From Promethearchaeota archaeon (GTDB lineage Archaea; Asgardarchaeota; Lokiarchaeia; Sigyniarchaeales; SOKP01), in contig JAEOTS010000187.1 of NCBI GenBank assembly GCA_016839745.1, positions 1 to 22,285 on the forward strand: a stretch of DNA of 22,285 bases, given 5' to 3'. Of this stretch, positions 644-15,538 are shown piece after piece. Position 1 is the stretch's first letter. The number at the start of each line of letters is the position of its first letter. Made by a program: the position numbers and the translations under genes. A model generated the notes under the pieces. That model did not search any database, was not told the origin of the DNA, and saw only the letters and a program-made list of their open reading frames with translations.

Positions 644-1270
644 TTAGCTTTTTGTTCGTATTCGATTTATCCCAATATACAGGCTTCCTAAAACTAAACC
701 TACCCCTATTAAGAGACTAACGCTTAAAGCATAACCTGCAATGCCGAGGTAGTTTATGTTTAAAAAGTGATATAGATAATCACCCGTGAAGGTACCGTGT
801 ATAAAAGAAAACAATAAATAACATAGCGGGTATATTGTCCAATAGGGTAAATATTTCCACTTATACTTAATTTTCGTTTCTGTTAATAACCAATCGACAA
901 TGAATAAGATAGGGGTAAGATAGTGTAATACAATATTAGAAAACCACGCAAATCCAGTCGGATGGTAAAGTCCTTGTAACAGAATTGCAAAGAAGATGAA
1001 AGTTGTAGTTATATAGAGTGTGAAAGCCCCTTTTAATGAGCCAGATATCTTTTTGAGAGCCTCTGGTTTTTTATACCACACAATCGCGAGTATTAACCAT
1101 GCCGAAACCATAAGATTTGTTTGTATTGTGTAGTATTTAAAACCGCTTAACCATATGAAAGGTATCTCCGATTCAATAGCGCTGATAGACCAACCCGCTA
1201 CTATTGTAAACAAAGTTAGAACGACAACACAAATTCGATAAACCAGTATTATTATACTTATATTTTTCAT
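644..1270 (-). CDS. Pr6Pr / FAR-17a-AIG1-like integral membrane protein (possible lipid ester hydrolase)
   Basis: About 6 hydrophobic helices. The motifs FKYYTIQTN, VLHYLTP...DW and YLYHFLN match the Pr6Pr/FAR-17a pattern (F.Y.T.QSN, H...P, YPY.FL). Confidence 0.75.
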   Translation of the reverse strand: MKNISIIILVYRICVVVLTLFTIVAGWSISAIESEIPFIWLSGFKYYTIQTNLMVSAWLILAIVWYKKPEALKKISGSLKGAFTLYITTTFIFFAILLQGLYHPTGFAWFSNIVLHYLTPILFIVDWLLTETKIKYKWKYLPYWTIYPLCYLLFSFIHGTFTGDYLYHFLNINYLGIAGYALSVSLLIGVGLVLGSLYIGINRIRTKS

Positions 1271-1357
1271 TTTTTAATCTTTCTCAATATAAATTAATAA
1301 ATCTAAGAGACGAATAAAAATTATCTTTTACCTTTTTATACTGAAAAAAAATCATAA

Positions 1358-2350
1358 TTATTCTATTCCTAACAATTTAATAATCAAGTTTGCCATAGAA
1401 TAAGGATCGAGGCTTTTATCCATAACTAACCGCAAATACTCATCAATAGTGGGATTTGAATGAATTAAACCTTCGACTTTTTTTGAGATTTTATGTTTTA
1501 GAATTTGAAGCGTTTCGCTTTTAATTCGGTTTTTCTGGTAAATAAGAGAAACTCCAGATTCTTTTAGAAAATCTCTATGTTTATTGATAAGCTCAACTAA
1601 TTGTTCGAAGTTTTCACCTTTTATCGAATTAACTTTGATGATTTCGGGAGTCCATTTCGATTTGAGCAAGTCGTTTTCTTCGTGGGTTTCAGATTCGTAT
1701 TTATAATTCATTCTCAATTCTAACATTTGCATAACATCGGAAATCTTTTTATCGGCACCTGCTAAATCCATTTTATTTACTACAAAAATATCTGTAATTT
1801 CCATGATCCCGGCTTTTATGGCCTGAATATCATCTCCTGATCCCGGAACTAAGAGTACAATTACAGTTTGAGCAGATTTAAAGATATCTACTTCAGATTG
1901 CCCTACTCCAACGGTCTCCACAATGATTATATCGCAACCATACGCATCCAAGATTTTTACTGCATCCTCCGTTGCTCTTGCTAATCCCCCTAACTGTCCC
2001 CTATTGGCCATGCTCCGGATAAAGACATCCTTCAGCGAGAAATTATCTTTCATCCGGATCCTATCACCTAATATTGCACCACCAGTTATAGGGCTGGTTG
2101 GATCGACACAAATAATTCCTATTTTCTTGCCTTGCTTAGCAAACAGTTTAGTTAAGGTAGAAATAAAAGTCGATTTTCCACTTCCAGGTGATCCGGTAAT
2201 GCCTAAAATATACGCATTTCCCGTGTGGCTATAGATTGCATTAATGATGTGTTCTGCGGCTTCAATATCATTTTCCACTAAGGTGATAAGCCTTGCAACC
2301 GCTCTAGAATTTCCATTTAGCAGTTTTTCAATTAAATCGGAATAATCCAT
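1358..2350 (-). CDS. meaB: Acyl-CoA mutase-associated GTPase metallochaperone MeaB/ArgK
   Basis: GITGSPGSGKST P-loop, VDPTSPITGGAILGDRIRM, FIRSMANRGQLGGL, ETVGVGQSE, GDDIQAIKAGIME and VNKMD. Lies 6 nt downstream of the B12-binding subunit gene. Confidence 0.95.
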   Translation of the reverse strand: MDYSDLIEKLLNGNSRAVARLITLVENDIEAAEHIINAIYSHTGNAYILGITGSPGSGKSTFISTLTKLFAKQGKKIGIICVDPTSPITGGAILGDRIRMKDNFSLKDVFIRSMANRGQLGGLARATEDAVKILDAYGCDIIIVETVGVGQSEVDIFKSAQTVIVLLVPGSGDDIQAIKAGIMEITDIFVVNKMDLAGADKKISDVMQMLELRMNYKYESETHEENDLLKSKWTPEIIKVNSIKGENFEQLVELINKHRDFLKESGVSLIYQKNRIKSETLQILKHKISKKVEGLIHSNPTIDEYLRLVMDKSLDPYSMANLIIKLLGIE

Positions 2351-2356
2351 CGTACG

Positions 2357-2758
2357 CTATCTTTTCAAATTGTTTTTAACAAATTCTACTATTGTTTTTA
2401 GCTCTGTACCCGGCCCGTAAAACCCTTTTAATCCGTGTTCTTCTAAAAAAGGTTTGTCTTCGTCGGGTATGATGCCACCCACACTGACAAGAACGTCGTC
2501 AATTTCGTTTTCCTTGAGTTTATCCATGATAACAGGACACAACGCTTTATGAGAACCAGATAACATGCTTAACATAACAGCATCTGGATCTTCTTGAAGA
2601 ACAGTCTGAACTATCATGTCCGGAGTTTGATGGAGTCCCGTATAAATAACCTCCATACCCGCATCTCTCAACGCTCGAGCAAGGACCTTCGCACCCCTGT
2701 CATGCCCATCTAATCCTGGTTTACACACTAATACTTTTATCTTTCTATTCTCTGTCAT
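2357..2758 (-). CDS. Acyl-CoA mutase small subunit, cobalamin-binding domain (IcmB/McmB-like)
   Basis: KPGLDGHDRG (DxHxxG base-off/His-on motif), SMLSGSH, GGIIP and FYGPGT. Confidence 0.95.
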   Translation of the reverse strand: MTENRKIKVLVCKPGLDGHDRGAKVLARALRDAGMEVIYTGLHQTPDMIVQTVLQEDPDAVMLSMLSGSHKALCPVIMDKLKENEIDDVLVSVGGIIPDEDKPFLEEHGLKGFYGPGTELKTIVEFVKNNLKR

Positions 2759-2772
2759 AATAATAACCTAAT

Positions 2773-4407
2773 TTAAAATATTGAATCTTCTCTATATTCT
2801 CCAAACACTTCCTTAAGAGCAGACATTACTTCCCCTATCGATGCATATTCTCTTATAGCATCCATTATATATGGCATTAAATTTTCAGTGCCCTTCGCAG
2901 CTTTTTTTAACTCTTTCAATTTCTTTAAAACGCTTTCATTATTCCTTTGGTCTCTAACATGTTGTAAAATCTCAATTTGTTCTTCAGCAACTTTTTCATC
3001 AATTTTTAATAAAGGAGTGGCGCAAGGTTCTCTTAATTGAAAATCATTTACTCCAACGATGATTCGATCCTTACTCTCAATTTCTCGTTGGTATTTGTAT
3101 GAGGAGTTTGCAATTTCTTTTTGGAAAAAGTTAGCTTTAATAGCAGGGATTACGCCACCTAACGCTTCTATCTTTTCGAAGTAATTTTCAGCTTCTTCTT
3201 CCATCTTATTCGTAAGCCATTCAACATAATACGAGCCAGCGAGTGGATCAACCGTATCCGCAACTCCTGATTCGTTAGCAATAATCTGTTGAGTTCGTAA
3301 AGCTATTTTTGCTGCTTTTTCAGTAGGCAAGCATAAAGCCTCATCAAAAGAGTTTGTATGAAGCGATTGAGTCCCTCCTAAAACAGCAGCTAAACCTTGT
3401 ATTGTAACTCTAGCTATATTGTTTTCTGGTTCTTGAGCACTTAACGATACGCCCGCAGTTTGAGTATGAAAGCGTAACCTCATGGATTCTTTCTTTTCTG
3501 CTCCGTATTTGTTTTTCAATCGTTTAGCCCATATGCGTCGAGCTGCGCGATACTTACAAACTTCTTCAAAAAAATCATTGTGAGAATTAAAGAAGAAGGA
3601 AAGTCTGGGAGCAAAATCGTCCACATCTAAACCTCGTTCCATCGCAGCTTCAACATAAGCAAAACCATCGGCTAAAGTAAAAGCGAGCTCTTGAACTGCT
3701 GTAGAACCAGCCTCCCGGATGTGATAACCCGATATAGAAATTGTGTACCATTGGGGAATATTTTTAATGCAGTATTCAATTGTGTCAATAATTAAACGCA
3801 TGGAGGGTTCAGGTGGAAAAACCCAGGACTTTTGGGCTATATATTCCTTAAGAATATCATTTTGAATTGTCCCTCTTAGTTTATCAGCGGAATGTCCTTG
3901 TTTTTCGGCTGTCACTACGTACATTGCTAATAATATAGATGCTGGAGCGTTTATCGTCATTGAAGTAGAAATTTTTGACAAATCGATACCACTAAACAAA
4001 CTTTCCATGTCCTTTAATGTATCGATTGAGACACCTTCCTTTCCAACCTCGCCCAAAGCTTTTTCGTCGTCAGCCTCGTAACCATAAATAGTATGTAAAC
4101 TAAATGCTACGCTTAAACCTGTTGTTCCATGCTCCAACAAAAATTTATACCTTTGATTAGTTTGCGCTGCAGTACCAAATCCAGCAAATTGTCTCATTGT
4201 CCATAAACGACCTCGATACATGTTAGGATAAGCCCCGCGAGTAAAAGGGTATTCTCCAGGTTCCCCTAAATCCGTACTGTACTTATTATCTTTAATGTCT
4301 TCAGGGGTATAGAGCGATTTTATCTCAATACCCGAAAGGTTCTCAAATTTCTCTCGTCTTTCGCTCTTAGTCGGTTTTAAGGTTTTACTTTCATCAATTT
4401 CAGTCAT
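2773..4407 (-). CDS. Adenosylcobalamin-dependent acyl-CoA mutase large (substrate-binding) subunit; methylmalonyl-CoA mutase family, isobutyryl-CoA mutase-type signature
   Basis: PGEYPFTRG, WTMRQFAGFG, GTIQNDILKEY, ISISGYHIREAG, PRLSFFF, RFHTQTAG, GGTQSLHTNSFDEA and DPLAGSY. Specificity positions are F74 and Q192. Confidence 0.95.
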   Translation of the reverse strand: MTEIDESKTLKPTKSERREKFENLSGIEIKSLYTPEDIKDNKYSTDLGEPGEYPFTRGAYPNMYRGRLWTMRQFAGFGTAAQTNQRYKFLLEHGTTGLSVAFSLHTIYGYEADDEKALGEVGKEGVSIDTLKDMESLFSGIDLSKISTSMTINAPASILLAMYVVTAEKQGHSADKLRGTIQNDILKEYIAQKSWVFPPEPSMRLIIDTIEYCIKNIPQWYTISISGYHIREAGSTAVQELAFTLADGFAYVEAAMERGLDVDDFAPRLSFFFNSHNDFFEEVCKYRAARRIWAKRLKNKYGAEKKESMRLRFHTQTAGVSLSAQEPENNIARVTIQGLAAVLGGTQSLHTNSFDEALCLPTEKAAKIALRTQQIIANESGVADTVDPLAGSYYVEWLTNKMEEEAENYFEKIEALGGVIPAIKANFFQKEIANSSYKYQREIESKDRIIVGVNDFQLREPCATPLLKIDEKVAEEQIEILQHVRDQRNNESVLKKLKELKKAAKGTENLMPYIMDAIREYASIGEVMSALKEVFGEYREDSIF

Positions 4408-4615
4408 AATTTTATCCTTCCTTTAGGAATGAACACCAGATTATGTAAATAATAACTTGATTTTTCCTAATTCTTGATAGGAATCTAAATATATTAACTT
4501 TTTTCATAATATCTCTTAAAATAGAATTTAGTATAGTGTTTCTCCAAAATCGGTAAAATTTCAGTTAAAATTAGATTTCGTATAGAACTTATATTAAAAT
4601 CTTATTTGAAAGAAG

Positions 4616-5752
4616 CTACAGACTTTTGTAAGCATCATTTATTGCTGAACAACCGCCACATCGTACGCACCCAGCTTTACTTTTTAAAGGATTTACTCCG
4701 TATGCTTTCATTAATTTAGCTGCTTTACTATAAATATCTACCATTATGTTAGGATTTGTGACGGGTAAATTATTTATCCCTGGTATAGATCTTACCGGTG
4801 TAATATACGGTATCACACCTAAAGAAATTACTTCTTCGACTCCTAAGATAAAGTCATCCGATGTTTCGCCAAAACCAGTTAAAAGATAGGTAGAAACCTG
4901 ATTTTTACCGAAAACTTCAAGTGCGTGCTTCCAGTTTTTTTCATATAACTCATAAGTAATACGAGATTTACCAGGAGTAATTATATCCCTAATGTGTTGA
5001 TCGAGAACTTCAAGATGGATTCCGATGGTATCCGCACCAGCATTTCTTAAATCGTCTATATAAGATAATTCTTCTAGTGGTTCGATTTGTACGTGTAAAG
5101 GAAGGTTTGGGTAATTATTTTTAACCCCTTTTAAAAGTTCGATGTATCGCTTAGCACCTTTGTCTTTTGTTTCGTCGGTTCCGCTCGTTAAAGTCATGTG
5201 GTTACATCTCCCCTCTTTTTTCGCTGCCGCGATTACCTCGGACATTTGAGTATAGTTCTTTTCTTCTATAGTTGCCTCATTCTCTAAACTTAACTCGATA
5301 CCACAAAATTTACACCCTTCACCGCATCCATGATAAACACATTTTTGATAAATAGTACTTGATAAGCAGTCTATACCATGGACCAATGCAATTTTCTTCA
5401 TCAGGATACCGTCGGAGGTTTTGTATTCAGGGCTGTAAAAAAGCGGGTTTTGAACCAATTTCAATTTACTATGCTCAATTTTATTATTAGTATCATATAT
5501 CTCAAAATATCCATTAATATTTTCTTTTATTACGAGGTTTGATTTTTGAGGGTCGTTCCAAAGAGCTGCGTTTACGATAGTTCGGTTTTCAAAAAGGAAA
5601 TACCTCCCTCCTGATGGTCCAGCACCTCCTTTACGACCGTACGATATCTCGATCCCCTGATTTCTATAGTGATCAAGTAAATTTTCATCTAAATATAATC
5701 CCTTACACAATATCTCCGTTTTCTTTACAAAAGCAGTATAGTTATCGAGCAT
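4616..5752 (-). CDS. Radical SAM protein, MSMEG_0568/NitD-like (biotin-synthase-related)
   Basis: RKGGAGPS N-terminal motif, KIALVHGIDCLSST, CVYHGCGEGCKFC cluster motif, LTSGT, STYLLTGFGE and C-terminal AGCVRCGGCS (CxxCxxC), all characteristic of this family. Confidence 0.85.
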   Translation of the reverse strand: MLDNYTAFVKKTEILCKGLYLDENLLDHYRNQGIEISYGRKGGAGPSGGRYFLFENRTIVNAALWNDPQKSNLVIKENINGYFEIYDTNNKIEHSKLKLVQNPLFYSPEYKTSDGILMKKIALVHGIDCLSSTIYQKCVYHGCGEGCKFCGIELSLENEATIEEKNYTQMSEVIAAAKKEGRCNHMTLTSGTDETKDKGAKRYIELLKGVKNNYPNLPLHVQIEPLEELSYIDDLRNAGADTIGIHLEVLDQHIRDIITPGKSRITYELYEKNWKHALEVFGKNQVSTYLLTGFGETSDDFILGVEEVISLGVIPYITPVRSIPGINNLPVTNPNIMVDIYSKAAKLMKAYGVNPLKSKAGCVRCGGCSAINDAYKSL

Positions 5753-7704: not shown

Positions 7705-9057
7705 TTGAAAGACTTACAACCATTTTTTAACCCAAAAAGCGTACTTATAATCGGAGTTTCTCGGCAAGCTCTTTCTTTTAGCTACACCGTCTTGAAAAAC
7801 TTGCTAGAGATTTTTTACAAAGGTAAGCTTTATATTTTAAATCCCAACGCAAATGATATTTTAGGTGTAAAATCTTACCACTCATTTGAGGAATTACCTG
7901 AGATTCCAGAATTAGCCGTAATTGTTTTAGGAAAAGATATTCTTGAAATTGTAGAAAAATTAGGCCAGCTTGGTGTTAAATATGTTGCGATACAAACTGA
8001 ATTAAAACCGGGAACAAAAATTAACGATTTAACTCTTAAATTACATGATACTTGCATCAAATATAACATTACTTATTTAGGACCGTCAATGCTCGGTATC
8101 ATCAATTTTGGAGATAACTTCACTACATCGATAATTCCCGTTCGACAGCATATAATGCGGGGGAATAAAGATGTGAAAGAAGGTATAAGCTTCATAGCTC
8201 AATCTGGCGGGTTGGCAGGAGCAATGGGTTGGTGGACGCCTTCACAAAGATTACCAATTTCGAAGGTAATACATTTAGGTAAAGGTTTCCACATTAATGA
8301 AGCTGATGTGTTAGAATATTTCTTACATGACGATACGACTAAAGTTATTTCACTCTTTATTAGAGATATTACAGACGAATTAATTGAAGCGGTGCAGAAA
8401 GTTAGCACTGAAAAACCTATACTATTTTATTACGTAGGTAAAGACGAAGCTCAGGAGATTAAATTGAAGAAAGTCGGAGGAATATCCGTTCTGAATTATA
8501 TCGAACTTTTCGAAACTGCAAAAATATTTTTATGGTGTCCTGAACCTAAAGGAATTAATTTAGGCATAATTGGTCCTAGTTCAGGCGCAATTCATTTAAT
8601 TATTAAAGAAATGAGAAAGCAAAATTTAGCACTTGCCAAACCTAGCGAAATTTCAAGGAATATAATAGAAGATAAAGTTGGAGGATCCACTTGTGCTTTT
8701 GGAAATCCGGTTGATTATTGGCCTCCAGAAAAATTTGTTGGAATTAAAATTTGTGGTATATATAATACAGCTTCAGAAGCTTTATTAAAAGATAAAGCTG
8801 TCGATGGATTAATTTTAGCTTTAGAGTTCTTTACTGAAATCGAATTTGACTTCAATATTTATTCTTCTCTTATTAATAATTATCCAAATAAACCAATAAT
8901 CACCATTCTAATTCAAGCCGAGCGTGAAGGGGCAAAAAGAGTGACCAAATCCGCAACAGAATTGAAAATTCCTGTGTTTGAAAACGAAATAGAACGAGCT
9001 GTTCGCGGTTATAAACTTTTATACGATTATTACTCAAAAATTAAAAAAAGAAAATAA
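7705..9057 (+). CDS. CoA-binding protein, ADP-forming acyl-CoA synthetase alpha-subunit-like (apparently lacking the catalytic His segment)
   Basis: FFNPKSVLIIGVS, LNPN...ILGVKSY, PELAVI, LGPSMLG, SFIAQSGG, DDTTKVI and NPVD follow the AcdA layout. TTG start with AAGGA upstream. Confidence 0.85.
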   Translation: MKDLQPFFNPKSVLIIGVSRQALSFSYTVLKNLLEIFYKGKLYILNPNANDILGVKSYHSFEELPEIPELAVIVLGKDILEIVEKLGQLGVKYVAIQTELKPGTKINDLTLKLHDTCIKYNITYLGPSMLGIINFGDNFTTSIIPVRQHIMRGNKDVKEGISFIAQSGGLAGAMGWWTPSQRLPISKVIHLGKGFHINEADVLEYFLHDDTTKVISLFIRDITDELIEAVQKVSTEKPILFYYVGKDEAQEIKLKKVGGISVLNYIELFETAKIFLWCPEPKGINLGIIGPSSGAIHLIIKEMRKQNLALAKPSEISRNIIEDKVGGSTCAFGNPVDYWPPEKFVGIKICGIYNTASEALLKDKAVDGLILALEFFTEIEFDFNIYSSLINNYPNKPIITILIQAEREGAKRVTKSATELKIPVFENEIERAVRGYKLLYDYYSKIKKRK

Positions 9058-9059
9058 GA

Positions 9060-10331
9060 TTAACTTAAAAAAACATCTTTTAGCTCTTCAGGAATAGAAT
9101 CATCTTCGTCCATCAAAGAAATAGCGTATATTTGATCGCCACATTTACATTGTCTACCTTCAAATAAGTAAAACTTAAACTTATTTTTCCAATTGCATAC
9201 ATTAACAGTTTCAATTTTAGCAATTTCACCACATATACAATAAATCGCGGCGTCACTAGAGTAATTAGGTATAATTTTGCTAAACTCGAGATCGGATTCA
9301 GTAAATTCGGATTCACTTAACATTTGGTTGATTTTATCAGCAAGATTGTCCTTTAATCTGGGAAGAAAACTCGTAATAATTCCTTCTTTACCTTTCATTT
9401 CGGTCAATACAACGAAGTTTTTCTCGAGTTTATCGCCCTTTTTCTTTTCTGGAAATATAGGTTGGTTGTATTGTTGCTGAAGGGCCGTAGGAATAGGAAA
9501 AGCCTCCATACCTTCGGGATATTCAAATGAGACGTAATATTCTGTAAGTCCTCTCATTTGTTTCTGGTTTATCACATTTAAATCCTCATAATCTCTGTGA
9601 AATAGAGAAAACTTAATTAGTTCCAGTGGAACTTTTAACTCTATTAGGTTTGATCGAACGTTTGATAAAATTTCACCAACATAACTCTTTAAGACCAGTA
9701 TGTCATCGCGATTTTTTGTATAAAGTTCATCTCGATTTTCTTCTTTAAATCGAAACCATTTTTTAACAGTGGAGTTCCTCACAAATTGAGGTACCATACA
9801 AAACACACACAATAGAGGTAACATAAAAAATGAGATGTCTATACCAAAAAGTGGGAGGATAAAAAATAATAAAGCAATACCTAATAAGGGCGCAGTAATA
9901 ATCAAATTTAGATTTCGCAATCTTTTTTCTACTGGCTTATTGATTCCTTTACTTATCGCTAATTCCTCGGTTTTAATTTTTATCCGTTCAACTGCTTCAA
10001 GGATTTTCTTATCTTCAAATCCTTTTTTAAGGAGTTTGTCTTCTTCCCCAGCAGTATCAAATTTATCTATTCTTTCTGTTATTCTTTTTATGTACTGGTC
10101 AATAGAACGTTCCTTAAAAGCAAAATCTAAAGGTTCTTCTGAAAAATAATCTAAAAATTTTATTACTGATAATTTTCCTTCAATGTCTTTAAGGTCGTCT
10201 GGCTGAATACCTAATGCTTCTTGCAATGCTTGGCTTTGTGTTTTTTTGGTGGGTCTGGCGCGCCTTGAATTCTTTTTTGGTTCTTCGATTCCTTCCGGGT
10301 GTTCACTATTTTTGTTCTCGTTTTCGTTCAT
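9060..10331 (-). CDS. Hypothetical two-TM membrane protein with C-terminal Cys (Zn-ribbon-like) domain
   Basis: 423-aa ORF with a charged N-terminus, a hydrophobic hairpin (LIITAPLLGIALLFFILPLFG / ISFFMLPLLCVFCMVP) and C-terminal YCICG...QCKCG. Confidence 0.7.
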   Translation of the reverse strand: MNENENKNSEHPEGIEEPKKNSRRARPTKKTQSQALQEALGIQPDDLKDIEGKLSVIKFLDYFSEEPLDFAFKERSIDQYIKRITERIDKFDTAGEEDKLLKKGFEDKKILEAVERIKIKTEELAISKGINKPVEKRLRNLNLIITAPLLGIALLFFILPLFGIDISFFMLPLLCVFCMVPQFVRNSTVKKWFRFKEENRDELYTKNRDDILVLKSYVGEILSNVRSNLIELKVPLELIKFSLFHRDYEDLNVINQKQMRGLTEYYVSFEYPEGMEAFPIPTALQQQYNQPIFPEKKKGDKLEKNFVVLTEMKGKEGIITSFLPRLKDNLADKINQMLSESEFTESDLEFSKIIPNYSSDAAIYCICGEIAKIETVNVCNWKNKFKFYLFEGRQCKCGDQIYAISLMDEDDSIPEELKDVFLS

Positions 10332-11859: not shown

Positions 11860-12249
11860 GTGCATTTCATAATGGACGCTAACCATTTTGTAAAAGATTT
11901 AAACGAAGCTCAAGAATTAATGAGAAACGAAAAGTATCAAGAAGCTTTAATCCTATTAGACAAATTAAAAGAAGCTGATAAAGCGGGAGATTTTGATTAT
12001 AACCTCACACATAAACTTTATCAGTTAATTTCAAATTCGCAGTCGCTCTACAATCAACAGAAGGTTTTAAGCGCGATCCAGAAAATATCTCAAAAACAAA
12101 AGTCGATATCTTTTCTGGAATTAAAGGAAGTAGTAAATGAACATGAAAATTTAGATATCGACGAGCAAGTTTTAAGAAGAGAAGTTGAAATCCTTATCCT
12201 TAGGTCTTTATTAGAAGTTAAGTTAGAAGGAAACGATTTAATCTTTTGA
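11860..12249 (+). CDS. Small helical-repeat plus winged-helix protein, PCI-domain-like
   Basis: N-terminal TPR-like hairpin (LNEAQELMRNEKYQEALILLDKL) and C-terminal SISFLEL...LRREVEILILRSLLEVKLEGNDLIF, which resembles the PCI winged helix. The likely real start is the ATG at 11872. Confidence 0.55.
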   Translation: MHFIMDANHFVKDLNEAQELMRNEKYQEALILLDKLKEADKAGDFDYNLTHKLYQLISNSQSLYNQQKVLSAIQKISQKQKSISFLELKEVVNEHENLDIDEQVLRREVEILILRSLLEVKLEGNDLIF

Positions 12250-12299: not shown

Positions 12300-12593
12300 T
12301 TAACTCAAAATCTTTAAGGCATCTCTAGCACTGACGAGGACTTCAAATTTGCCTTCTACACTTTCATGGTCTAAAAAAGGCCTGAACATTTTTGAGACTT
12401 CAACAATGGCATCATCTCCATGGCCTTTTTCAGTAAATATAATATTATAATGTTTTATACCCTTTTTTCCTTCCCCTGTTTGGAAAGTTAACCATTTTTT
12501 TACATAAGACGGTGGTTTTCCCATTTTTTTCACAAGTTCTACAAGTTCTCTTGCTTTTGAAGATGGATACCAAAGAATAAAATTAAAAATCAT
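12300..12593 (-). CDS. Small hypothetical protein, probable ferredoxin-like (beta-alpha-beta-beta-alpha-beta) fold
   Basis: 97-aa ORF with an alternating strand/helix pattern, a TATA-like TTAAATAT upstream (12661-12668, minus strand) and a poly-T tract downstream. Confidence 0.65.
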   Translation of the reverse strand: MIFNFILWYPSSKARELVELVKKMGKPPSYVKKWLTFQTGEGKKGIKHYNIIFTEKGHGDDAIVEVSKMFRPFLDHESVEGKFEVLVSARDALKILS

Positions 12594-12802: not shown

Positions 12803-13396
12803 ATGATAATAGATCAATTAACACGGAGTATCCAGCTAAAAATTTGTTATTTTGGTCCAGCGCTTTCGGGAAAAACTACGTCTATAAAAGCGTTGTTCAA
12901 CCATTTTGGGAAAAAAGATCGCGTTTTGAGCATAGATAGTAGCATCCGCCGGACTTTATTCTTCGACTATGGTACAATAGATTTTGAAAATCAGCAGTGG
13001 CATCTAAAGATTCACCTCTATTCTACAACTGGACAGGATTTCTACATTATTACGCGACCTGTTACGTTACAAGCAATCGATGGAATTATCTTTGTAGCAG
13101 ATTCGCAACAAGAGGTATATTACCGAAATTTAACTTCATGGAACGAATTATGCAATTATTTCGAAGATGCTATTATTACTCTTCCTAAGCTTATAGCATT
13201 TAATAAACAAGATTTGCCAGATAAATTTAGTCCTGCAGTATTTTTAGACAATATCAATTATTTTAAATTTAAAAACATTGACTTTAAGAAAACAATTGCA
13301 GTGAACGGGGAGGGGATTTTAGATAGCTTTGAAGAAATTTTAAGTCTTGTTTTTAAAAATCTGTATAAAAGTCAGATAGTATCTGCTCTTCAATGA
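12803..13396 (+). CDS. MglA-type small GTPase (Ras superfamily, Arf/MglA-related)
   Basis: KICYFGPALSGKTT (G1), RRTLFFDY (MglA switch I), LYSTTGQDFY (MglA-type G3 without the Asp of DxxG), DGIIFVADSQ, NKQDL (G4) and IAVNGEGI (G5). Confidence 0.9.
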   Translation: MIIDQLTRSIQLKICYFGPALSGKTTSIKALFNHFGKKDRVLSIDSSIRRTLFFDYGTIDFENQQWHLKIHLYSTTGQDFYIITRPVTLQAIDGIIFVADSQQEVYYRNLTSWNELCNYFEDAIITLPKLIAFNKQDLPDKFSPAVFLDNINYFKFKNIDFKKTIAVNGEGILDSFEEILSLVFKNLYKSQIVSALQ

Positions 13397-13409
13397 GATT
13401 AACCCTAGT

Positions 13410-14618
13410 TTAAAAAAAGTCTGACGATAAGGGGGTTTGGATTCTGATTGTTTTTTGAGAATTGTCTTCTAACACACAGATCAACGCTGTTATATTTTGT
13501 TTAGTTTTATAAACAATTTCCTTTTCTTCGCCGGCTTCCCAACGATGAAAACCGGTTAGAGTTGGAGCTGTCTCGAATAGACCCTCTTGAAGCCCCGAAA
13601 CATTAACTGAAACGCCATTTAAGGCTTCTTTAGAAATGTTCTTTATTTTAATATTGTATTTTTCTATATCAGAATCTATTGAAGAAATTTTATATACTTT
13701 CTGGAACTTTGAAGAGACTTCGTCAAAGATTGATGGCGCTCCCGCAGAACTTTTAGAAAATAGATCAGTACCTAATTCATCTTCCCCAACTGGTTTTGCT
13801 ATTATCGTAATAGGAACCTCAAGCTTAATTGGTTCTTTTCCAAATTCGGGTTTAGGCTTTCCAATAAACATTAAAGACCATTTTACATAAGAACCGTATT
13901 TCATTCCCCAATATTCTTTTTCGTGGGGTTCCCATAAGTAGTTATGGCTTGGTTGTGCAATCTCAGGCACTTTTAAAAGTAAGAAATCTTTATTCATATC
14001 GGAGGTTCGAGCATCTCCCGCAATTGCAGGGGGTAATTCTTCAACCTTGCTACATGTTTGTCCATAGGCTTCACAATAGCAAATTATATTAGCTTTTTGT
14101 AAAAGTCTGATTTCGACTTGTTTAAGCTCATCAGAAGAAAAGTTGATTTTAATTGTCTCTCCTGGTTTAAATATATCTTTTGATAAACTCACATTTAACC
14201 CAGAAATTGAAAGTGAAAGAGGGTTTGGTTTCATTACTTGCTGATCTGTATCTTTCGCCTTGATTTCAATTTTTTGCGTTTTATTAATTACCAAATCATC
14301 ATCTGGATTATTGGGATGAGGTTGCCTTAAAATTAATTTAAGTTCGTATTCTAAATCTCTATTTTTAATGGTAGGAATAACATTGTTCTTGATTAAAAAC
14401 GATTTTTCTCGAATATACTCCCCCTTTTCAAAATTCCCCTTAGAGAATATATCTTCTTTAGTGATTTGAAGCTCTTTTAAACATGGAGGATGAGTTAAAA
14501 GACGAATCCCAGACCATAATATTGACGAATCTTCCTCGAAATTGAATGTAGTCCTAACTTTTAGTTTATCCCCTAAGAAAACGTATCCGTTATTTAAATC
14601 ACTAAGGTTTAATTTCAT
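13410..14618 (-). CDS. Arrestin/Vps26/SpoOM-fold protein (tandem arrestin N and C sandwiches) with an extra C-terminal Ig-like domain
   Basis: N-domain pattern: VFLGDKLKV...GEYIREKSFLI..NVIPTI...LEYELKLILRQP. C-domain pattern: VSLSKDIFKPGETIKI...VEIRLLQ...LKVPEIAQPS...YVKWSL...LEVPITII. Residues ~307-398 show a further beta-rich pattern (YNIKIKN..LNGVSVNV..WEAGEEKEI). Confidence 0.65.
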   Translation of the reverse strand: MKLNLSDLNNGYVFLGDKLKVRTTFNFEEDSSILWSGIRLLTHPPCLKELQITKEDIFSKGNFEKGEYIREKSFLIKNNVIPTIKNRDLEYELKLILRQPHPNNPDDDLVINKTQKIEIKAKDTDQQVMKPNPLSLSISGLNVSLSKDIFKPGETIKINFSSDELKQVEIRLLQKANIICYCEAYGQTCSKVEELPPAIAGDARTSDMNKDFLLLKVPEIAQPSHNYLWEPHEKEYWGMKYGSYVKWSLMFIGKPKPEFGKEPIKLEVPITIIAKPVGEDELGTDLFSKSSAGAPSIFDEVSSKFQKVYKISSIDSDIEKYNIKIKNISKEALNGVSVNVSGLQEGLFETAPTLTGFHRWEAGEEKEIVYKTKQNITALICVLEDNSQKTIRIQTPLSSDFF

Positions 14619-14830: not shown

Positions 14831-15538
14831 TTGCGTAAAATTATGAGACAACTTAAAGCAATCTTATTCGACTTAGATGGAACCTTAATAGATGTGGATT
14901 TAAACCAATTCGTTCCAGGATATTTAAAATTATTAGCGAAGAATGTAGCTCACTTAATCCCTCCTAAAAAGATGGTTCCAGCCATTATAAAAGCGTCTGA
15001 ATTCGTAAATAGAAACAACGGTAAAAAATCAAATGAGGAAGTGTTTTTAAACGCTTTTTTTCCTGTTGAAGGCTATGAAAAGGACCAGATCCAACCACTC
15101 TTTGATAAATTTTACGAGGAGGACTATAAGGAATTACAGAAATTTACAAAAAAGAAATCGGAAGCACGAAAAGTCGTTCAAACCGCTTTTGACAAAGATT
15201 ATAAGGTTGTAATTGCAACAACTCCCGTTTTTCCTCTAACTGCTATAGAGCAACGCCTTGATTGGGGCGGAATTGCTGATTTTCCATACGATCTCATAAC
15301 CAGTATTGAAAACTCATGTGCTACTAAACCAAATCTCCTTTATTATCAATTGATATTTAAATATCTCAATCTATCTGCCAAAGAATGCATTATGGTAGGG
15401 GACGAAGATAAGGATATGGTATGTGCCAATTTAGGCTCGCAAACCTTCTTAGTAAACAGTTCAAATACAAAACTGAGCACTGAAACTCCTGAACCAACAT
15501 TTAGTGGAGATTTGAAAGATTTAATCGATGTTCTATGA
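14831..15538 (+). CDS. HAD-superfamily hydrolase
   Basis: LFDLDGTL (motif I), IATTP, KP and MVGDEDKD (motif IV). The likely start is the ATG at 14843. Confidence 0.92.
   Translation: MRKIMRQLKAILFDLDGTLIDVDLNQFVPGYLKLLAKNVAHLIPPKKMVPAIIKASEFVNRNNGKKSNEEVFLNAFFPVEGYEKDQIQPLFDKFYEEDYKELQKFTKKKSEARKVVQTAFDKDYKVVIATTPVFPLTAIEQRLDWGGIADFPYDLITSIENSCATKPNLLYYQLIFKYLNLSAKECIMVGDEDKDMVCANLGSQTFLVNSSNTKLSTETPEPTFSGDLKDLIDVL

Follow-up and report, generated by a model that had tools for sequence, protein, structure and literature searches.

The window analysed here is a stretch of 22,285 nucleotides from a Promethearchaeota archaeon, in which the gene for an MglA-family small GTPase and the gene for an arrestin/Vps26-fold protein of 402 amino acids converge tail to tail. 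The initial annotation proposed that the two proteins form a GTPase–adaptor module. Comparison across the phylum points to a different arrangement. It is likely that the two genes do not belong together as a dedicated pair, that the 402-residue protein is a displaced member of a unit made up of an FrhB-like protein, a Rag-like GTPase and the arrestin-fold protein, and that MglA is a separate switch. Both open reading frames lie where they were first placed, with stop codons 13 nucleotides apart. The features on which the argument turns are as follows.

12803..13396 (+): MglA-family small GTPase, 197 amino acids; catalytic motifs all intact, match to PDB MglA at E = 9e-27.
13397..13409 (no strand): spacer of 13 nucleotides between the convergent stop codons; most sister genomes have a gene for a protein of ~270 amino acids (cluster c4) here, with or without others.
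13410..14618 (-): three-domain protein, 402 amino acids, with two arrestin/Vps26-type lobes and a C-terminal beta-sandwich tail, as predicted by the model and structure matches.
14259..14618 (-): arrestin N-lobe, residues 1-120; model strands at a predicted local distance difference test score (pLDDT) of ~90, structural matches to ARRDC3 and TXNIP.
13803..14219 (-): arrestin C-lobe, residues 134-272; sub-threshold Arrestin_C match, contains invariant C180, C182 and C189.
13431..13694 (-): third beta-sandwich or "tail" domain, residues 309-396, from the model and reciprocal tail profiles.
Contig C101 of the same genome (G000), 26497-27537 (+): third carrier of the tail domain, an open reading frame of 347 amino acids found with the tail profiles.

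We searched for homologues of the arrestin-like protein in 301 genomes sampled across the phylum and detected the gene in 72. Gene maps were drawn for 70 arrestin-like loci, and coordinates were tabulated from three phylum-wide searches. Hereafter, f1 is the window's family, g1 is its genus and G000 is this genome, of which the window is contig C177. Related genomes are not independent in the co-occurrence and co-decay counts given below.

All distant lineages have, immediately before the arrestin-like gene and co-directional with it, a gene for a protein of ~303 amino acids that starts with a P-loop. This protein matches the Pfam family Gtr1_RagA (PF04670; E = 1.4e-25; 90.5 and 65.9 bits, cut-off 22) and the PDB entries of Gtr1 and RagA (E = 1.8e-20 to 1e-15). 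Its length of ~302 amino acids and a match envelope reaching Gtr1 residue 278 suggest that it may have a C-terminal roadblock dimerisation domain. Upstream of the Rag-like gene lies a gene for an FrhB/FdhB-like protein of ~500 amino acids with ferredoxin-type iron-sulfur motifs. The Rag-like and arrestin-like genes are found on one contig in 50 of the 70 genomes, and without exception the Rag-like gene precedes the arrestin-like gene in the same orientation. The gap between them is below 300 nucleotides in 20 genomes, including all 14 outside f1, and below 6 kilobases (kb) in 38. By lineage, the gaps are as follows.

14 genomes outside f1: 57-116 nucleotides.
g4: 27 nucleotides.
g8: 167 nucleotides.
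g9: 244 nucleotides.
g2, g5 and g6: 0.9-5.7 kb.
g1, the window's genus: 6-24 kb, or separate contigs.

Direct adjacency in the same direction spans six Asgard families. The phyletic distributions match as well. The arrestin-like gene occurs in f1 (57/68), f3, f4, f10 (5/5), f20 and f21 (6/6) and in none of the other sampled families; the Rag-like gene occurs in f1 (57/68), f3, f4, f10 (5/5), f20 and f21 (6/6), with a more distant form in f24. The arrestin-like gene is present in one copy per genome, and the window's copy is 26-60% identical over its full length to the genes that follow the Rag-like gene in f3, f4, f10, f20, f21, g4, g8 and g9. The idea that the arrestin-fold protein works with a small GTPase therefore gains support from co-direction and from adjacency in six families, but the partner indicated is the Rag-like GTPase and not MglA.

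In this genome, contig C83 carries the HEAT-repeat, FrhB-like and Rag-like genes as a group (5.2-9.4 kb; the Rag-like gene is at 8530-9447), and an ordinary DRG-type GTPase gene comes next. The Rag-like gene is not directly upstream of the arrestin-like gene, since the two are on C83 and C177, respectively. The genes of the unit, which run head to tail in most carrier lineages, would have been pulled apart in the window's genus by inserted genes, leaving the FrhB-like and Rag-like genes on C83 and the arrestin-like gene in the window. Because the unit's other genes sit on another contig, the arrestin-like gene is probably its displaced member.

The third beta-sandwich domain of the 402-residue protein, which the initial annotation had missed, provides a further connection to the unit. 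A profile of this tail (residues 305-402 of the arrestin-like family) was run against all open frames of this genome of at least 60 amino acids (n = 9,535) and matches exactly three. Besides the 402-residue protein, these are the C-terminus of the FrhB-like protein on C83 (E = 5e-5) and the C-terminus of the 347-residue protein on C101 (E = 3.2e-5). In the reverse direction, a profile of the C-termini of 23 FrhB-like proteins from other genomes detects these three frames only, with residues 312-395 of the 402-residue protein matched at E = 2.8e-5. Neither profile matches MglA, the GNAT gene, or p129 and p97, two small genes on the MglA side of the convergent pair that are described below.

In f21, the row of FrhB-like, Rag-like and arrestin-like genes continues on the same strand with four tandem paralogues of ~425 amino acids (L034:476-5768 (-); also L035, L049 and L050), which carry a C-terminal V4R domain (a Bet3/TRAPP-related fold). 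Upstream of this row are a Peptidase_C25 gene and a gene for a tail-domain protein of ~320 amino acids.

The fate of the genes after loss of the arrestin-like gene distinguishes the two GTPases. Four f1 genomes have a Rag-like match and no arrestin-like gene. In two of them (G019 and G030, g3), the Rag-like gene is cut to a frame without the P-loop, of 266 or 93 amino acids. In the other two (G156 and G276, g2), it is split into two frames and the FrhB-like gene is intact. Seven further f1 genomes have neither the Rag-like nor the arrestin-like gene. In the g3 genomes, the syntenic MglA gene is intact (199 and 201 amino acids) beside the decayed Rag-like gene. MglA survives where the arrestin-like gene is lost and therefore does not depend on it, whereas the Rag-like gene seems to.

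The GTPase of the window is intact, as the initial annotation had it, and its sequence clearly places it in the MglA family. In a phmmer search of the PDB, it matches MglA of Myxococcus and Thermus at E = 9e-27 to 2e-25, and Rab and Arf proteins at ~1e-6; the next-best match after MglA is Ypt31/Rab11 (E = 2e-6). The G1 motif (P-loop) reads G18-PALS-G23-K24-T25, as identified from the sequence and the alignment with MglA. Residues R50-T51 of switch I align with R53-T54 of MglA. The G3 motif is S74-TTGQ78, which lacks the aspartate of the canonical DxxGQ, as does TVPGQ in MglA. In particular, the switch-II glutamine Q78 in HLYSTTGQ lies opposite Q82 of MglA in HLYTVPGQ. The G4 motif is N134-KQD137. 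This genome has a second MglA paralogue (C17:43052-43639 (-), locus L070), which is 71% identical to the window copy, and f1 genomes hold 2-4 MglA paralogues each. An adjoining gene for a Roadblock/MglB regulator is typical of bacterial mglBA operons, though it does not strictly define the MglA family. In family profile scans, no neighbour of the window's MglA gene matches Robl_LC7, and the neighbours of the second paralogue have no clear family and include no Roadblock. The linked MglA copy of G252 (C15:5543-6124) has an in-frame TAG.

For the MglA-arrestin module that the initial annotation proposed, the survey of Asgard neighbourhoods gives no support beyond synteny within one family. In 46 of the 70 genomes, less than 4 kb separates MglA from the arrestin-like gene; all 46 belong to five genera of f1 (g1, g2, g5, g9 and two of the four g6 genomes). 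The linked MglA gene is always convergent with the arrestin-like gene. The gap is below 150 nucleotides in 23 genomes and 0.15-4 kb in the other 23, where it is filled by c4, sometimes together with a HEAT-repeat or CoA-binding gene. No linked MglA gene was found in g4, g7 or g8, nor in the 14 genomes outside f1, and no homologue of the window GTPase lies within ~6 kb of the distant arrestin-like orthologues, even at E < 1.

The two genes are not co-distributed across the phylum. MglA-family genes were found in 176 of the 301 genomes. The families f9 (73/76), f14 (19/19), f5, f17 and f2 have MglA, and no arrestin-like gene was found in them. Conversely, four families that carry the arrestin-like gene (f4, f10, f20 and f21) and two f1 genomes that carry it (G144 and G261) gave no MglA match at E <= 1e-30.

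Within f1, the gene order of the syntenic block is NifU-like, p129, MglA, c4 (where present), arrestin-like and HAD. The HAD, p129 and NifU-like genes are as persistent as MglA, so MglA is not special in this block. In most f1 genomes, the c4 gene, which encodes ~270 amino acids, comes immediately after the arrestin-like gene and has the same orientation (for example, L047:5137-5979 (+)). In this genome, tblastn finds no c4 at E <= 1e-10. The compact arrangement of the window is a derived state: MglA abuts the arrestin-like gene here because the intervening c4 gene was lost in the window's subclade.

The tandem arrestin-like sandwiches that the initial annotation read in the 402-residue protein are borne out by structure prediction. 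The protein family has 429 database matches, from Loki-type Asgard archaea and of near-constant length, the top 120 of which are at least 66% identical. Against Pfam, the protein matches Arrestin_C only, below threshold (E = 1.6e-4; 22.4 bits, cut-off 27.7). At the gathering score, there is no Arrestin_N, Arrestin_C or Vps26 match, and the N-lobe matches nothing. A precomputed PF02752 match is present on a few orthologues. Searches of the PDB and NCBIfam with the sequence gave zero matches, and the arrestin fold is therefore seen through structure prediction only. The AlphaFold2 model, built from an alignment of 28 orthologues (26-89% identity), has a mean pLDDT of 81.5 and a predicted template modelling score of 0.72. 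It comprises three all-beta domains (residues 1-120, 134-272 and 309-396), with a disordered linker at residues 278-306.

Residues 1-277 of the model match Vps26 (PDB 2fau) with Z = 14.5 over 242 aligned residues. The N-lobe matches the N-lobe of ARRDC3 (Z = 13.6; root-mean-square deviation 2.4, 123 residues) and the N-domain of TXNIP (Z = 12.0). Matches of the model to bacterial Spo0M (Z = 14.2), to Rgp1 (Z = 13.8), and to beta-arrestins and visual arrestin (Z = 12.5-13.1) lie in the same range. In Foldseek searches, VPS26C and Vps26 are matched at E = 1e-10 to 6e-10, and many arrestin-clan chains at E <= 1e-8. In the predicted structure, an arrestin-clan fold of two consecutive curved beta-sandwich lobes is confirmed.

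Four cysteines (C46, C180, C182 and C189) are invariant across the 28 orthologues. C46 lies in the N-lobe, and the other three form a C-x-C-x6-C motif in the C-lobe, where the confidence of the model dips at residues 185-188. The four residues could form a candidate metal or redox site that bridges the lobes. To our knowledge, canonical arrestins have nothing comparable. In G113 (C27:190626-191918), the arrestin-like match falls in two overlapping pieces (residues 1-261 and 235-402) within one frame of 462 amino acids, which suggests that this gene holds a short internal duplication.

Several observations weigh against assigning the arrestin-like gene to the Rag-like unit and setting MglA apart. 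With all candidates scored, no Rag-like orthologue was found in G171, G177, G162 and G258, which have the arrestin-like gene; in G171 at least, this absence is limited by the contig, which ends 2.5 kb upstream of the arrestin-like gene. Family f24 keeps a related Rag-like gene and has no arrestin-like gene at all. There (L057-L061), the Rag-like gene, at 47-51% identity, is convergent with an FrhB-like gene. A divergent arrestin-like gene was sought beside it and not found, the neighbours being genes for an MFS transporter, another Rag-like GTPase and FrhB-like proteins; f24 may represent a different wiring of the same Rag-like GTPase. The co-decay amounts to about two independent events only and is thus suggestive, not statistical. 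In addition, of the 56 f1 genomes in which the arrestin-like gene is nearly full length, 46 have a convergent MglA gene less than 4 kb from it (41 of 42 in g1 and g2), and MglA came to abut the arrestin-like gene directly (12-132 nucleotides) in several genera, after loss of the intervening gene. Linkage kept in this way could be explained by selection as well as by drift. Selection would be expected if the MglA paralogue had been recruited in this family as a second or replacement partner, with the tail-to-tail layout maintained, for example, through regulation at a common 3' region or through co-localised expression. MglA has kept its place in the window's genus, where the Rag-like gene now lies 6 kb or more from the arrestin-like gene. 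Arrestin folds can also bind small GTPases: the arrestin-C subdomain of Rgp1 binds the C-terminal tail (hypervariable domain) of Rab6 (PMC11618376), and this contact serves as a precedent. Nevertheless, we consider such a recruitment unlikely. Convergent genes are not co-transcribed, and one to three unrelated genes (c4, HEAT-repeat, CoA-binding) intervene in half of the linked genomes. In g4, g7 and g8 and in two g6 genomes, the arrestin-like gene has no MglA linked to it, and two of these genomes have no MglA at all at E <= 1e-30. Moreover, MglA outlives loss of the arrestin-like gene, its synteny is equalled by that of HAD, p129 and NifU-like, and it does not carry the tail domain.

The fold of the 402-residue protein raises another interpretation, a free-standing cargo or membrane adaptor of the Vps26/alpha-arrestin type (a proto-retromer) that has no dedicated GTPase and whose neighbours are coincidental. 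Vps26, VPS26C, ARRD-6 and TXNIP are indeed its top structural matches, and a list of the eukaryotic signature proteins of Asgard archaea includes arrestin-domain proteins (bioRxiv 10.1101/2021.04.02.438162). However, identity to the eukaryotic arrestin clan is only 10-18%, and bacterial Spo0M matches about equally; with Spo0M at Z = 14.2, an arrestin fold alone does not imply trafficking. No homologue of Vps35 or Vps29 was seen among the mapped neighbours in the 70 loci, the rest of the genome not having been searched for them. The co-direction with the Rag-like gene, the phyletic match, the co-decay and the common tail domain are hard to call coincidence, and we regard a free-standing adaptor as improbable. 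The cysteines, invariant over orthologues of such varied identity, could instead mean that the protein serves the FrhB-like flavoprotein, mainly as a redox or metal-binding accessory, and that the Rag-like gene between them is incidental. The tail domain is common to the FrhB-like protein and not to the GTPase, and HdrA- and MvhD-like genes, assigned by reading sequences, are nearby in several loci. Yet in every compact locus it is the Rag-like gene, not the FrhB-like one, that adjoins the arrestin-like gene; in G156 and G276, which have lost the arrestin-like gene, the Rag-like gene has decayed and the FrhB-like gene has not; and no metal-binding family is matched. A mainly redox or metal-binding role is therefore very improbable.

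In the interpretation that we favour, the 402-residue protein is the arrestin/Vps26-fold member of an Asgard unit with an FrhB-like iron-sulfur flavoprotein and a Gtr1/RagA-like GTPase. It would be a binding or adaptor subunit that still works in trans with the Rag-like GTPase, and the complex may be held together through the tail domain that is common to the 402-residue, FrhB-like and C101 proteins. MglA would most likely be an independent switch within the same family-level syntenic block. A more specific proposal, which we offer as a tentative one, is that the arrestin-fold protein is the GTPase-binding subunit of a Rag-like complex with the FrhB-type flavoprotein and the C101 protein, coupling redox or energy state to a eukaryote-type switch. 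The complex would be encoded in trans in this genus, and in this family the MglA paralogue that stays beside the arrestin-like gene could be a second input.

The remaining features of the window next to the convergent pair are as follows.

11872..12249 (+): p129 (cluster c7), ~125 amino acids, three helices and a winged helix in the model; the usual co-directional upstream neighbour of the MglA paralogue in the family.
12300..12593 (-): p97, open reading frame of 97 amino acids between p129 and MglA; at this position in this genome only among the loci compared.
14831..15538 (+): HAD-family hydrolase; its gene diverges from the arrestin-like gene and stands in the position of the Rag-like gene.

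The p129 sequence is well conserved, and its model has a pLDDT of 94. The GTG start of the listed p129 frame is probably wrong, as orthologues start at the ATG at 11872. The p129 gene stays beside the c4 and arrestin-like genes even where the genus has no MglA (L031, L032, L042 and L045). We examined p129 as a possible MglB-like or Roadblock regulator and rejected it, because it consists of helices and a winged helix with generic matches only (Foldseek best E = 0.03; VIA Z <= 9.3). The p97 gene separates MglA from its usual upstream partner p129; p97 was likewise considered as a Roadblock and has no family match. For c4, Pfam gives no family and Atlas gave a cupin-like lead only (0.93-0.94). 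Elsewhere in the window, positions 644-5752 (-) hold an ordinary metabolic cluster, comprising a MeaB GTPase, a B12-binding subunit, the large subunit of methylmalonyl-CoA mutase and a radical SAM protein. Further genes encode ribosomal protein L10e, a GFO/IDH/MocA oxidoreductase, and CoA-binding, SMP-30/gluconolactonase-like and NifU-like proteins.

Assigning partners to the small GTPases of Asgard archaea is an unsolved problem, since these GTPases rarely lie in operons with regulators; those of Lokiarchaeon MK-D1, among which MglA-like GTPases were earlier predicted, are generally without operon partners (Tran et al., PMC10933270). Arrestin-domain proteins, MglA-like GTPases and Rag-like GTPases have each already been reported in Asgard genomes. 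We found no paper that links an Asgard or archaeal arrestin-like protein to a Rag-like GTPase. The window removes a tempting but weak pairing, that of MglA with an arrestin-fold "adaptor", and offers specific candidate partners for the arrestin-fold protein instead, namely the Rag-like GTPase on C83, with the FrhB-like protein and the 347-residue protein on C101. It contributes a negative result on MglA, an example of the operon in a broken state and the pattern of co-decay. The genus also provides a natural experiment, in which the unit is split (by at least 6-24 kb or onto separate contigs) and all parts are retained. The parts are retained though split, and the Rag-like gene decays after loss of the arrestin-like gene; therefore, a functional dependence that does not need co-transcription can be argued. 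If binding is confirmed, partnerships of arrestin folds with GTPases would predate eukaryotes.

The proteins of the window can be compared with five known systems. MglA of Myxococcus xanthus and Thermus thermophilus (PDB 6hjh and 3t12) aligns with the window GTPase over the full length (E = 9e-27), and the P-loop, the switch-I Arg-Thr, the switch-II Gln, the NKxD motif and the Asp-less G3 are common to both. Unlike the bacterial proteins, the window GTPase is archaeal and has no adjoining Roadblock/MglB gene, its usual upstream neighbour being a helical and winged-helix protein.

Vps26 and VPS26C (of retromer and retriever), and alpha- and beta-arrestins, have the same two-lobed beta-sandwich fold as residues 1-277 of the 402-residue protein. 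At 10-18% identity to them, the archaeal protein adds a third beta-sandwich domain and the four invariant cysteines, and its gene has a Rag-like GTPase rather than a Rab as conserved neighbour. An arrestin-clan fold from a prokaryote is that of Spo0M of Bacillus subtilis (PDB 5cl2; Z = 14.2, root-mean-square deviation 1.8 Å, just 120 residues aligned); in contrast to the 402-residue protein, it has no third domain and no GTPase context. Rgp1, of the Ric1-Rgp1 exchange factor for Rab6 (PDB 9ayr), is an arrestin fold that works in complex with a small GTPase. Its deviation from the 402-residue protein is high (8.4 Å over 251 residues), and the likeness is at the level of the fold. No Ric1-like propeller/solenoid partner was seen here, and the GTPase is Rag-like.

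The eukaryotic Rag/Gtr GTPases (RagA and Gtr1) are the closest comparison for the GTPase of the unit, which matches their family well above threshold and matches their solved structures. Its FrhB-type flavoprotein partner has no eukaryotic counterpart, and we know of no arrestin-fold subunit in the eukaryotic Rag machinery. Like the eukaryotic Rags, however, the Rag-like gene comes with several non-GTPase partner genes.

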